From NCBI GenBank assembly GCA_010015585.1, contig ML975171.1: a DNA stretch of 64,000 nt; one strand, 5' to 3'. Every line of letters begins with the position of its first letter. The first letter of the stretch is position 1. Position numbers and translations under genes: made by a program. The notes beneath the pieces were generated by a model, which saw only the letters and a list, made by a program, of their open reading frames with translations, searched no databases and was not told where the DNA came from. Below are positions 51,498 to 57,573 of the stretch, one piece after another. The stretch comes from Eremomyces bilateralis CBS 781.70 (taxonomy: Eukaryota).

Positions 51498-54400
51498 GGG
51501 CTGCAACTCGCAACGATGAAGACGAGACAATAGCAAGATGGCTCTTAATGACAGGGAATAGCTCTTCTACTGTATATTTCCATAAGGAACCAAAGAACTA
51601 TGATTCGCCACGACGACGCTCACACGCTTGATCAACCGTGATATCTGACATTAGCTGGCTCTGAGTTTTAAGGAACCTGACCCCCAATATCAGCGTATGC
51701 TTGGCCACCGAGGCACCGACCCTACACAGTGATTCGAATTATAAAGGATTGATGCGGTGGGACAGGACGTCAATCGATGAGCGTATTCAAGCAAGGTGAC
51801 CCCGTCACGTTCATCTGTGGTTGACTTAACGTGTTTACTCATCTTTCAGATGGAACGGGCCATCCACATGAGGCTGATTGATGTCGGCTTATCCTGAACT
51901 CCCGCCTTAGTTACCGGCTTACCCATTTTCCACCTCATGTACCTAATTGGGTTCCCAAGCTTTACCAGTTCGGGATTGTATTACTAGGATGGAGGCACCA
52001 TTGATACGTACTTATTTTGTCTACGGCTTACCAGTGCGCTGGGCCTGCGCCCTACAACAATGTGAGTTCCAGGCTTCCAGCAGTCGGAATACTGTGCCCA
52101 ACGTAATTACTCCGGACACACTACTTACTGAATCTTTGTGTACTGCCGATAGTCCGAGCGATGGCCGAGCCAAGCCTGGCCAGTTGAGTGCTTGTCGCCA
52201 CCGCTTTCAGCACCTGTTGTGAAGCATTTCCCAAGAATTCCAGTGGCTTGTCCCTCGTCTGCGATCAGTCAACGCGTCGACGGTGGCGTAGCAAGGACGG
52301 TCCCATCTAACTAGTTAGTCCTCATCATTAACTTAGGTTACTGTTCGTGTTGCGAATAAATGGGTTGAAAACGTGTAGCTTCGGGGATTTGGGGTAGTAA
52401 GGGTCCAGAAGAGCCGCCACACGTGGCAATCAGATGCCGGGTTCCAACTTCCAACTTCCAAGCAAATCAGGCTGAGCGTCCATCATCACGGATGTTATGT
52501 TAGGTAAAGTAAAACCGCGTCAAGTTTGACGTTTTTCGTTGAACTTCTAATTTGTTGTGACTTGTGAATCTGTCGGGCCACGGATCAAGCGGGACCTTGG
52601 CTCACTGCCTTCGACGTTCTAGCCGCATGCCGGTCTGCCGGATTGTAGCCCGAGCTGGGCTTCGACAATTGACGGTGAAGACCGAGCCCGGCCACGCGTA
52701 GGGCAGACCGGCAGATGTGTTTGAACCCATCCGTGTGCAATATGTATTACCTTTTGAAAGAGCCAAGAATACCCAACATTCGCTGTGCTATTCCTAAATT
52801 GAGCTTGTTCGAGGCGGCGCTGTCTCGGCGGATTAACCATGGTTCTTTGGGTCTGGTCTCTCAAACTCTCGATTGCTGCCGAGCCGGTAGATGTTAGGGT
52901 TCCGAAACCCGACTAAACCGAGGTGGAACTATCCAACATGCCTTACGGAATATGGAAATTAGGATTTTTTACGGAGTATTAAGGCAGAGTATTTGGGGAT
53001 AGCAAAAATAACGCTGTTGCGCTCAAGCTTGGAGAGGAGCTATTAAGCGCTGACGGGAATAACACGGTCATACCAGGACTCGTTGCTAGTATGCCTCCTG
53101 GTACCCGAACACCAAACGCCAACATTGCGGTTCTAAACGATGAACGAGTCCGAGAAAACCAAGTTCGATGTTGTATTAGGGATGATACCGTACGGAACAG
53201 AATAGATTAAACAATTCCACAGATGACAGAGGTGAGGCCCCTTTGCTCCAATACATCCTACGTACCAACAACCAGTCAGACGATAGCAAGCTAAAGCGCT
53301 TAGTGTACTGCACGTGCGCAATCATCCATAAGGGGCATTGTTCTGGAAGCCTGTGAATAGACTGTCAGTTGGTCAATGATCGATCTAAACAACATTGATA
53401 TTCAGGACCTTTGGGTCCTCTCGCGGATATCCGTGCCTTCAGGGTTCCTGAGTCCAGTCCAGTCGTCTTCCTTGTGGTGAGAGATCGAACCACAACAGCC
53501 AGCAACAGATCCAACGCCAGCTCAGGGGCGGCTTTGTCCGACGATCGCTTCAATCCGATCTTCCGAGTTGAGGTGCGAAGTCAATGCAACGTGCAAACAA
53601 GGAAGGTCGATCATTCGGCCATGTGTCAGTGACCGCATACAAGGAACCGCAGTCATCAACTCATCATTTCGAGAGAGCGGGATTGGCTTGTAGAACGCTC
53701 AGTTGAAGGGTGACGTTTCAGCTAAGTCTCGAAAGTCGGAGGTCAATCTCATTTTGTCATTCCAATTCAGGAGATCGTGCATTGCATCTCCTGCGAATAC
53801 TGGGAATGCTACACGCAACCTACGATGCGTCGAGAGTCGAGACGGGAGGGCACCAGGTCTCCCGTTTGTAGCTTGGTGGTGCAGGCAATAGACATTGTGT
53901 GGCATTCCTGAATGAGAAGCTGGACGTTTGTATACTGGAGTACACGCATCTACGTATCAATTACAAACGCGGAGACGGCTCTGGACGCGCGGGAATGATT
54001 CGACCAGGGATGATCCAGTCAACCAGAAGGACGTGGGCATTGACGAGCGTGTTATGCGAATATATGTGTAATGGCAACGCCGCTCGTGGGTTGCCTGCGG
54101 GATGAGGCTTGATGGCGGGATGGGACGACATTATGATGCATGGAGTGGCTGGCATCCCTTTCGTACGGTACCGTAGATGTTGGACTGTGATGTTCAATTG
54201 CTCGCTCGTTCGATTCTCAATAGAAATAACGCTATACAGTGACCTGCTGCTTGCGAGGACTGGGTAGGAATTAAGGAGCTGCAAGCCTGTAACGTTGCCA
54301 TCACCGATCGGGTATGGGTCGGACAGATCCGGTTCGTAGATCAGTGATACACATGATACATGAATCTTGATGCCGGTAGGTAGGTATTCCGTACCGCAAC

Positions 54401-55652
54401 GTACCAATGACAGTGAATAGGACGCGATGTTGTTCCTACCAGTCGGAGCCTCTACGACGGTGACATTAAGCGTTCAACATCGATCTTTTGACGTGCTCCA
54501 GGTTTAAACGTTCCGAGGGTTGATGTCTGGGCTCTGGAGTACTGGTATGGAAGTGCTCTAGAGCATGCTGTGTCGAGTTTAGAGCCTAGTGATTACTCTA
54601 TGGCACAGTAATATTGATGATATTAGGTGTGAGGGACGTAAGTTAGCGGCGTGTAGCGGCGGTCGGCGGTCGGCGGCGCAGGAAGTTCGGCAGTACCAGC
54701 GGGATCACCAGTGGATGATAGGCGACAGCTCGCTGCACTGCTGCCGTTCTGCGGCACCGCCTGCAGCGCTGCACCAGAAACCACCTAAAGTCCACGATGC
54801 TTTCCCTGGGCCCGCTGGGCCGCTCGGCGCGTTGGGCGAGCGAGTTGGCGGGCTAATCCACTAAAGGCCATAGTCGGTAGTAGTTAATGGTAGCAATGTA
54901 TTCGACGAACTGGTTCCGTTTCTCAATTCCACTCCCAAATGTCTCCAAGTCTCCCTCTGTCTTCCCATTGACCATTTCGTATTTCCATCCTCATCTGTCA
55001 CCAGGTTGTCTGTCAGATTGAAGATTTCCACCTCTTCTCTCATCCTTATCCGCCGCATCAACTCGACATCTCTGCCTCTCGCCCACTGGCCTGCTCTCCC
55101 TCCCCACGTCATCTCTTAACCCTCTGAGCACCCTGATCGCTAATTCCACACCCACCTGGCTGAACTTCATCGTCATCACTCGTCCTATATCTAATACCTC
55201 TATATCCCATTCCATCGAACCCATTAGAGCGGAATTACCTTTCAGTTCGCCGCCGTGATACTAGATTCTCACTTGGGACCCCCGACTCGCTCCAGCATCG
55301 TCTCGAATTTCGCAAACTGGAGTCCTCCGACACCCCACCGCCTCTAACATACTCTCCCCTTGCCACTGAACGGGGTCGAGAGTCAACCGCCGATAACACT
55401 CCTGTGTCGACGCCAACATATTCCTCGACATCCTGCCCTCCTCCGAGGCATCGTAAGATCTTCGGCAAGCCGAAGAACCGAGATCTTGCTTCGTGGCATC
55501 GCAAGGTTGGTGCCGAGGCCGCGGGCGGTCCGTCCACCTCGAGCCCGTTTCTCGAGTCCGAACCCCTCTTCGACCATCCTGGAGCCAGCACCTTCCCGCT
55601 GTTCGCAGCCGACGACGACGAGGCACAGCTTGCGCCAGAGTCCGGCAACGCC

Positions 55653-57573
55653 ATGACCAGTTCGAGCTCTCCGATCGACATCGCAACCCCTCAGCGAGTC
55701 AGTTCGACAAGTCCGCGAAATCACACTTCGAACCTTACGTCGGCGCTGCGGCAAGAGGCGAACGCCGGCATGTCGCAACCCAGGCAGATCCGACCGAATG
55801 AGCGGACGGGGGCGGAACATGGCATGAACATGTTCGGGCGGCAAGATTCGATAGGAAATGGCACGGGTCTTCTGCAAGATTATTACCTCGGAGCACGTCC
55901 AATCTCAGTCGCGGAACGAAATCGTCGAGAAAGCGCTGTAGGGAGTTTAGGGAATGGAATGAGCTGGGGCGGCATATCGGTCGGAAGTTATATTCCCAAT
56001 GAGTAAGTCCTCTCGTTGGTTTCGTGTGGAAAAAGTATTGACGATCCAAGTACCATGATGGCCGGAACATCGCCATTCGGAATGTTTCAATCACCCTCAT
56101 CCTTCCATCACTCCTCGTCGTATCTACCGAAAGTCGAAGCGACCATGTTGCGGAACTACACATGCTGCGATATCCCCATCGATTCGTTGCATGATCTCCT
56201 CCAGCACTATGAAGAGCATCACTCCAATCAATCGGATCTTATCACGTCACGACCTTCGCAATCGGGTCAAGGAGGGTTCGGTCCTGGGCCTTCTCGGTTA
56301 GCGATGCAATCTGGAGGTATGACTGGTCACCGGCAACCATCGCTTCAGGGTTATAATCAATCTCAATTTGATGCACGATCCCAAGCGCCTTACACCGGGA
56401 CTCCACTATCTCCGGTTCAAGATCGAGATCCGCTAGAAGAGATGGATTTCGATGATGCTGGAGCACCTGTCACCCCGATGCAGCAGCACTTCAATGTCTC
56501 AGATCTCCGGCAACCTAGGGTGAACATGAACAACTCTCAGCAATTCCACCCTGGACTTCGAACGACCAGTCCTACGATCCCTGCGGGTGTGCAAGCCTTT
56601 TCAAATCTACAGAATAACCCGACCGTGTCTTCGGTAAATACTCCTACCCTTGGTACCAGGTCAGCGCAGCAGCCTCAGTCGCCCGATTATTCGAACGCTC
56701 CGTCCGGCGATCAATCGACTCAAAGCGCCATGGGCACCGACTACGACATTGGTAACTTCAATATGAGCGGCTTTGGTGACTCGCAATCGAACGATAGCGG
56801 TACTGTAGATTGGGGAAACATGAACGTCAACAACATGAACATTGGAGGTGGGATGTCAGGCTTAACCATCGATGAGCCGGCGAGGAACCTCAATGCGCTC
56901 GAAGGCATGACACCCCAGCAAATGCAGCAGGCACTGGCAATGCAATATGGAATCCAGAATCAGCATATGATGGCTGGCGGAGGACGAAACTTTACCACTG
57001 CTCCATCAGGACTGCAGATTCCAGAGAAGGATCCTAAGCCGTTCAAATGCCCGGTGATCGGGTGTGAGAAGACTTACAAGAACCAGAACGGGTTAAAATA
57101 TCACAAACAGGTAAGCAATATCAAGGTCCCTTATCCACACACCATCAGCTAACATGTCCCAGCACGGCCATCAAAACCAGCAACTCAGGAAGAACGAGGA
57201 CGGCACCTACTCCATCGTCGATCCCGAAACCTCGATCCCATACCCAGGCACGCTCGGAATGGAGAAGGAGAAACCATACCGGTGCCAGATTTGCGGGAAG
57301 CGATATAAGAATCTCAACGGCCTCAAATACCATAAACAGCATCAACCCGGCTGCAATCCGGACCTGCAACCGCAGATCAACGGCCCGACAAACAACAACA
57401 ACAATAGCAACGGCCCGTCAATAGCGGGAGGAGGCAACATGGGCTCGAATCCAGTGATGCCAATGGGCGTGTCCGGGATGGGCAGCATGGATTTTGGGAA
57501 TTTGGAGGCGCTGTCCTCCGGTATGGGAGACCCGAGAATGTTCATGCCTGCGGAATACCCAGCCGGCATGTAG
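55653..57573 (+). CDS. SFP1: Split C2H2 zinc-finger transcription factor Sfp1, 3 exons (possible CUG-initiated extension from 55317)
   Basis: GMSWGGISVGS, SYLPKVEA..NYTCC..LHDLLQHYEE, PFKCPVIGCEKTYKNQNGLKYH, EKPYRCQICGKRYKNLNGLKYH; introns 56003-56050 and 57111-57162. Confidence 0.93.

Follow-up and report, generated by a model that had tools for sequence, protein, structure and literature searches.

A conserved CUG codon as the probable start of a 112-residue N-terminal extension in an Sfp1-like transcription factor of Eremomyces bilateralis

The window analysed here, a stretch of 64,000 nucleotides from Eremomyces bilateralis CBS 781.70, carries a gene for an Sfp1-like C2H2 transcription factor in which a CUG codon at position 55317 is, on comparative and cDNA evidence, very probably used as a start codon. 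Initiation at this CUG, combined with leaky scanning to the AUG at 55653, would in all likelihood produce two isoforms of 718 and 606 amino acids, the longer of which carries an additional 112 N-terminal residues. Such an extension of Sfp1 had been proposed in a preliminary description of this DNA, and the comparison with relatives as well as the cDNA now lend support to it. We infer the use of the CUG and the existence of both isoforms from the anatomy of the locus, the colinearity of cDNA and genome, the conservation of the start site, coding-type evolution of the extension and depletion of ATG.

Gene identity and transcript structure

The 765-aa protein deposited for E. bilateralis CBS 781.70 (P0001) was retrieved with 100% identity across the whole query; this Dothideomycete, whose placement is uncertain, belongs to the order Eremomycetales. 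Close homologues, e.g. from Diplodia seriata and Exophiala dermatitidis, are named 'Transcriptional regulator of ribosomal biogenesis proteins' by their source, a name that yeast Sfp1 bears as well. Via these source names, we refer to the gene as Sfp1-like. The pattern C..C...H...H of two putative C-terminal C2H2 fingers is visible in the protein sequence, and the Pfam model zf-C2H2 yielded two weak matches, one in exon 2 (residues 331-352, E=0.043) and one in exon 3 (residues 39-59, E=0.0031), both below the gathering score. When the extension was scanned together with exon 1, no Pfam family was matched.

Transcript data were taken from one public run (X1), which is labelled 'RNA?' and kept as contigs from which neither strand nor expression level nor transcription start can be read. 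A contig of 2419 nt spans positions 54960-56002, 56051-57107 and 57160-57478 and is devoid of the two GT..AG introns, indicating that the run contains cDNA. The resulting three exons (Table 1) provide 718 codons when counted from the CTG and 606 when counted from ATG 55653, and the 718-codon product matches positions 48-765 of the database protein without a difference. Throughout 54960-56002 the contig is colinear with the genome, with no joint inside, which shows that 357 nt of the mRNA or more lie ahead of the CTG. A transcription start downstream of 55317 and an upstream AUG exon spliced into this frame, two findings that according to the preliminary description would speak against the extension, are accordingly both absent from this contig. 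Positions 54872-54959 are left uncovered by the X1 contigs. Because transcription starts are not visible in contigs and rare splice forms may be missing from them, the mRNA may begin before ATG 54939, in which case it would contain a short uORF, or a minor isoform may carry an upstream AUG exon.

Table 1. Positions of the features discussed (numbering of the window)
Feature	Position	Strand	Evidence
10-nt micro-exon ('CEG') of the database model	54628..54637	+	without support in cDNA contigs
ATG-free stretch, leader plus N-terminal extension	54942..55652	+	ATG positions; shuffles
5' leader portion in cDNA contig, 357 nt, 0 ATG	54960..55316	+	colinear contig; true transcription start beyond contig evidence
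In-frame TGA closing the Sfp1 frame, 51 codons before the CTG	55161..55163	+	
Start context CGCAAA-CTG-G (C-4, A-3, G+4)	55311..55320	+	
Proposed CUG initiation codon, long isoform	55317..55319	+	CTG in 38/38 distinct loci
112-codon N-terminal extension, no Met	55317..55652	+	homologue coverage, codon-position pattern, predicted disorder
Exon 1 (long form)	55317..56002	+	contig joint 56002 to 56051, GT..AG
Internal AUG, putative short-isoform start, AACGCC ATG A	55653..55655	+	Met113 invariant, strong context
Exon 2	56051..57107	+	contig joints 56002/56051, 57107/57160
Exon 3, putative second C2H2 finger and stop codon	57160..57573	+	contig joint 57107/57160

An ATG-free stretch with an in-frame CTG

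The plus strand has an ATG at 54939 and the next one at 55653, which bears out the 711-nt run without ATG in any frame (54942-55652) noted in the preliminary description. This spacing of 714 nt is the longest in the window, the runners-up being 439 nt on the plus and 444 nt on the minus strand; in total, the plus strand of the window contains 1146 ATGs at a mean spacing of 56 nt. Shuffling of 54942-55652 (5000 shuffles) yielded 6.4 ATGs on average and none at all in 0.14% of the cases (P(0)=0.0014). The other elements of the preliminary description were likewise recovered: upstream of ATG 55653 its frame stays open as far as 55164, with the TGA listed in Table 1 closing it, the peptides quoted at that time are present in its translation, and CTG 55317 is in frame and embedded in the favourable context CGCAAA-CTG-G, with C at -4, A at -3 and G at +4. 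Further in-frame near-cognate codons between 55164 and 55317 are limited to ATA 55194 and ATT 55209, both preceded by C at -3.

The CTG codon and its context are invariant in relatives

A metagenome scan provided 80 loci, which together with the window make 81 sources. The N-terminal motif was found within the exon-1 ORF in 63 of the 81, and 50 of these were distinct, comprising 38 loci without AUG at the site (CUG-type) and 12 loci of AUG-type. Clustering at 70% amino-acid identity resulted in 11 CUG-type, nine AUG-type and no mixed clusters. Alignment of the leaders across relatives, as suggested in the preliminary description for detection of a conserved near-cognate codon, revealed that the homologous Leu codon is CTG in all 38 distinct CUG-type loci, in each case with A at -3 and G at +4, and that G occupies position -6 in 37 of them. 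For comparison, CTG is used in 9/38, 9/38 and 16/38 loci at three other invariant Leu columns and accounts for 25% of all Leu codons of these ORFs. The codons neighbouring the CTG vary synonymously (GTG/GTT/GTA/GTC, AAA/AAG). Conservation of the CTG and its context thus exceeds what amino-acid conservation explains, which applies to the 38 loci and to all 11 CUG-type clusters. A hairpin downstream of the CTG gave no signal, as the folding energy (MFE) of positions +4 to +63 was similar to that of shuffled sequences in the 38 loci (mean z +0.18).

The region upstream of the CTG provides few other entry points into this frame. In 14 of the 38 distinct loci, including L043, L033, L018, L026, L017, L023, L025 and L010, the frame is closed by a stop at a distance of 21-57 nt before the CTG, and the interval between the two is free of in-frame ATG. 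Within the sequence covered, no in-frame ATG open to the CTG was detected in 37 of the 38 distinct loci. The exception is L014 (223-375), which retains the CTG with A-3 and G+4 and has in addition an in-frame ATG 45 nt upstream, not separated by a stop; this ATG may represent a third way to start the long form. Among the 25 CUG-type loci for which at least 800 nt of upstream sequence are at hand, 12 have an ATG 178-332 nt before the CTG, and such ATGs may fall within the leaders of these genes.

The same ORF lacks the extension in 18 of the 80 loci. Some of these are cut by contig ends, while in others the match does not begin before the region of the inner Met, several of them having a stop shortly ahead of it. 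Such a stop, in frame and only a few codons away from the inner Met, is seen in L070, L073, L076/L078 and L066-L069, where the N-terminal domain is located outside that ORF. In these loci, either an intron separates the domain or only the short form is made.

The extension evolves like coding sequence

When the extension was used together with exon 1 as query, 22 proteins were matched with 97-100% query coverage and 35-47% identity (self-match 100%). In 21 of these 22 homologues, similarity sets in at [K/T]-L-[D/E/A]-S..TPPPL; the annotated N-termini upstream of this point vary in length and look dissimilar on visual inspection. The remaining one, a Setomelanomma protein, looks mis-spliced. 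The K or T in front of the Leu implies A at -3, and D, E or A behind it implies G at +4. A full HMMER scan extended the set to 138 relatives, among which many exon-1 ORFs start within two to three residues of the Leu and others at the inner Met. As the first residue 'M' or 'V' of those exon-1 ORFs may stem from prokaryote-type gene calls, it was excluded as evidence. A cluster look-up with ten of the M-starting exon-1 ORFs returned none with a name, and a word-based homologue search with the extension alone (residues 1-112, against longer proteins) retrieved only the query itself and Aulographum, being too insensitive to widen the taxon range. Conserved elements within the extension include TPPPL.YSP, RESTA..TP.STP, a basic patch, which the preliminary description regarded as NLS-like, and, embedded in an acidic stretch, S/TFPLF.

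To describe the type of conservation, pairwise differences were counted by codon position. At positions 1, 2 and 3, these amount to 0.40, 0.375 and 0.60 in the extension, closely resembling the 0.37, 0.33 and 0.63 of the downstream coding part, with no in-frame stop in 37 loci in either case. For the 40 codons upstream of the CTG the values are 0.64, 0.55 and 0.67, and 32 stops are present in 35 loci. At the nucleotide level, conservation is lost ~9 nt before the CTG. By these sequence measures, coding-type conservation begins at the CTG codon. The extension frame is kept open over 92-112 codons in 37 distinct loci. Hence, the coding-type evolution upstream of the AUG that was expected from the preliminary description is observed, and the frame-disrupting changes that it considered as counter-evidence are found in none of these 37 loci.

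Structure prediction for the first 228 residues of the long form returned a mean pLDDT of 50.6 and a pTM of 0.16, without secondary structure in residues 1-112; the extension is therefore predicted to be disordered. Further downstream, in the part of exon 1 that would be shared by both isoforms, an RRES motif (55923-55934; residues 203-206 of the long form) is invariant in 28/28 sequences. In our view, this R-R-E-S motif presumably resembles a basophilic kinase site of the PKA/Sch9 type.

The path to the inner AUG is depleted of ATG

In the window, the 336 nt between CTG 55317 and ATG 55653 contain no ATG in any frame. The corresponding corridors of 37 CUG-type loci, 276-336 nt in length, harbour seven ATGs in total, all of them out of frame, and 30 of the 37 hold none. 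Shuffling of the codon order within the corridors led to an expectation of 53.5 +/- 6.1 ATGs, and none of 1000 shuffles was as low as seven, a statistic that overstates significance because the loci are related (~11 CUG-type lineages at 70% identity). Sequences of equal length after the inner ATG contain ~175 ATGs (174 and 177) in the 37 loci. The corridors of seven AUG-type loci with a clear inner Met are likewise free of ATG, as compared to 10.6 +/- 2.7 expected. As judged from these sequences, the depletion holds in every lineage, with the reservation that the statistics overstate independence since the loci are related.

The inner start itself is well preserved. Met113 is invariant in 28/28 aligned sequences, and a purine at -3 and a G at +4 each accompany the inner ATG in 34 of 37 loci. 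The seven ATGs within the corridors are in frame +1 and occur one per locus, namely in L030, L038, L039, L045, L050 and L052 (+253 to +265 from the CTG) and in L006 (+181). Six of the seven are positioned ~20-30 nt before the inner ATG, and the six loci concerned form one cluster at 70% identity. An ATG in the corridor could open a short overlapping ORF and thereby lower use of the inner AUG.

Orthologues that start the same domain with AUG

Among 27 proteins listed, 17 begin with M[F/L/W], which places their first residue exactly one position before the Leu. They derive from Chaetothyriales, including Exophiala, Cladophialophora, Capronia and Rhinocladiella; the protein of Penicilliopsis zonata, a further row, begins with MLDS. 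Because these proteins start there with M, the domain represents a real N-terminus that is AUG-initiated in Eurotiomycetes. This fits the proposed CUG-initiated extension, as the same domain is started by an AUG one codon upstream in the Eurotiomycete orthologues. The 12 AUG-type loci of the scan agree in this arrangement: in all of them the ATG is located one codon upstream of the Leu position, -3 is a pyrimidine (T or C) and +4 is T, A or C, never G.

On the tree, AUG-type sequences fall into a single clade of 15 rows, with the exception of L048, which lies inside the CUG-type set; the labels of three M-L-starting proteins (Cladophialophora, Penicilliopsis and 'Elasticomyces' per source) were corrected by eye, and P0008 and P0170 were left out. 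Judging from this topology, the start type appears to have changed at least twice. L048 (1372-1524) is AUG-type and groups with Dothideomycete-like CUG-type loci, which indicates a second, independent change of start type. Its ATG is in a weak context, with C at -3 and T at +4, and a CTG is located two codons upstream.

Alternative readings of the locus

The deposited 765-aa model translates the extension from an ordinary AUG in spliced upstream exons, and contigs can indeed miss rare splice forms. To arrive at its ATG, this model runs through at least four upstream pieces (window 54441-55246), which add a 47-aa N-terminus. It joins the 10-nt micro-exon (Table 1) to an acceptor just before 55246 and recruits the first five residues from yet another piece. 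None of its junctions is present in either cDNA contig: the contig covering 54960-56002 runs straight through, with no joint entering 55246, and a second one covering 53800-54871 is also colinear with the genome, so that the upstream introns of the model are not seen. The 47 extra residues are without counterpart in any homologue compared. In addition, relatives have the in-frame stops 21-57 nt before the CTG described above, and an AG directly before the CTG is missing in 7/38 loci, arguing that the CTG site is not a conserved splice acceptor. We conclude that the upstream exons of the database model, unsupported by the cDNA contigs, are contrived to reach an ATG, and we regard translation of the extension from a spliced AUG as highly improbable. 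Artefacts of the same kind are found in annotated relatives, whose models have unrelated N-termini of up to ~240 residues, start at the inner Met or are flagged 'partial'.

The 606-aa protein could also be the sole product, in which case the upstream frame would be untranslated leader or the relic of a lost AUG start. Models of some relatives do start at the inner Met (Coniosporium P0191, Exophiala xenobiotica P0186), and a stop is found just upstream of this Met in some loci. However, a relic would decay, yet 92-112 codons are open with a coding-type pattern and without a stop in 37 distinct loci. Moreover, the CTG is fixed in 38/38 loci while synonymous sites of other invariant Leu codons are well mixed, its context is fixed at A-3/G+4, and in Eurotiomycete orthologues this domain begins with an AUG, all of which makes an exclusive use of AUG 55653 quite unlikely. 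As to the identity of the first start, a different or additional near-cognate codon close to the CTG might be employed, i.e. GTG at codon -2 or AAG at codon -1 in relatives, or ATA or ATT further upstream in E. bilateralis. Codon -2 is GTG in 9/38 and codon -1 is AAG in 31/38 loci, and prokaryote-type gene calls start there (P0002 with MKLD, P0013 with VKLD). In E. bilateralis, however, these two codons are CGC and AAA and thus not near-cognate, ATA 55194 and ATT 55209 are both preceded by C at -3 within unconserved sequence, and the CTG alone is invariant. There is accordingly very little to expect from these codons, and the CUG at 55317 is retained as the likely start of the long form.

A putative two-start mechanism and its relation to known systems

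In the mechanism that we propose, ribosomes scanning the long leader of the Sfp1-like mRNA, which is free of AUG in its known part, would meet CUG 55317 first, in the best context. A fraction of them would initiate there with Met-tRNAi and synthesize the 718-aa protein with its putatively disordered, motif-rich extension of 112 residues. The remaining ribosomes would scan 336 nt without encountering an AUG and would start at the strong-context AUG 55653, giving rise to the 606-aa protein. Dothideomycetes, Lecanoromycetes and Coniocybomycetes appear to share this two-start layout. Eurotiomycete-type orthologues would use as their first site the AUG one codon upstream, in a weak context. A CUG in strong context or an AUG in weak context would thus by either route place the first site at intermediate strength.

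Yeast Sfp1 controls ribosomal-protein and ribosome-biogenesis genes and is subject to TORC1-dependent localisation. Two C-terminal C2H2 fingers, putative in the protein studied here, are a trait of S. cerevisiae Sfp1 and the homologues FgSfp1 of Fusarium graminearum (PMC11603076) and AFUA_1g14750 of A. fumigatus (PMC10542180), the tie to yeast Sfp1 being made through homologue names. For FgSfp1, the functional properties named above for yeast Sfp1 are partly known, according to the passages of the respective paper that were searched (PMC11603076). The main-text passages searched in both papers (PMC11603076, PMC10542180) make no mention of start codons or N-terminal isoforms. A literature search for Sfp1 in connection with a non-AUG, near-cognate or CUG start retrieved no description of a CUG start either, in agreement with the preliminary description, which knew of none for Sfp1. 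As far as this search shows, the proposed CUG start of Sfp1 has no earlier description, and the type of mechanism, a conserved non-AUG N-terminal extension coupled to leaky scanning, is already known.

As far as the passages searched tell, the closest described case is cpc-1 of Neurospora crassa, the GCN4 homologue, for which conserved N-terminal extensions initiated at near-cognate codons have been reported (Ivanov et al. 2017, mBio, PMC5487733). Both genes encode Pezizomycotina transcription factors with a long leader and a class-spanning in-frame extension upstream of the annotated AUG, both have a conserved near-cognate codon in good -3/+4 context (the cpc-1 set includes CUG), and in both cases the start is left unresolved by annotations (PMC5487733). 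In contrast, cpc-1 has two AUG uORFs, several candidate near-cognate codons and an extension that bypasses uORF control (PMC5487733), whereas the known leader of the Sfp1-like gene is free of AUG, its CUG is single and invariant, and an ATG-free corridor connects this codon with a second start that is invariant as well. The cpc-1 case is moreover backed by in vitro and ribosome-profiling data (PMC5487733), the Sfp1-like case by comparative and cDNA evidence. Sfp1 is not mentioned in the passages of the cpc-1 paper that were searched. The Discussion of the same paper, in the part seen, refers to mammalian C/EBP alpha, with an AUG in poor context, and C/EBP beta, with a near-cognate codon in good context, from which leaky scanning leads to shorter isoforms (PMC5487733). 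A similar alternative between weak AUG and strong near-cognate codon is met here between fungal classes; however, the C/EBP factors are unrelated bZIP proteins, and they are paralogues within one genome rather than orthologues in different lineages.

If the two isoforms are made from one mRNA through the choice of start codon, work on this factor in Dothideomycetes and lichen-forming fungi has used wrong or incomplete proteins, as the database models examined either contain invented upstream exons, begin at the inner AUG or carry the flag 'partial'. A simple rule for re-annotation of these genes follows. The gene offers an uncommonly clean case for studying non-AUG initiation, since its CUG is single and invariant and its known leader lacks uORFs, and the lineages with a weak AUG provide a natural swap experiment. 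The names given to Sfp1 homologues mark them as regulators of ribosome production and of cell growth, and with this layout a connection of initiation fidelity to ribosome biogenesis becomes testable. Given a first site of intermediate strength in every lineage and an ATG-free corridor leading to a strong AUG, the ratio of long to short form would report the fidelity of initiation (eIF1, eIF5 and eIF2 status). Tentatively, and with a distinctly smaller chance of being right than the CUG start itself, Sfp1 might in this way serve as a sensor of start-codon stringency that feeds translation status back to ribosome-making genes. Such feedback would operate if the putatively disordered extension altered localisation, stability or activation of the protein.

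A neighbouring transcript

The contig that is colinear over 53800-54871 has a total length of 2744 nt, extends below 53800 and represents another transcript, which adjoins the Sfp1-like gene. Within the region of this neighbouring transcript, a frame of 170 codons is open on the minus strand at 53961-54473.
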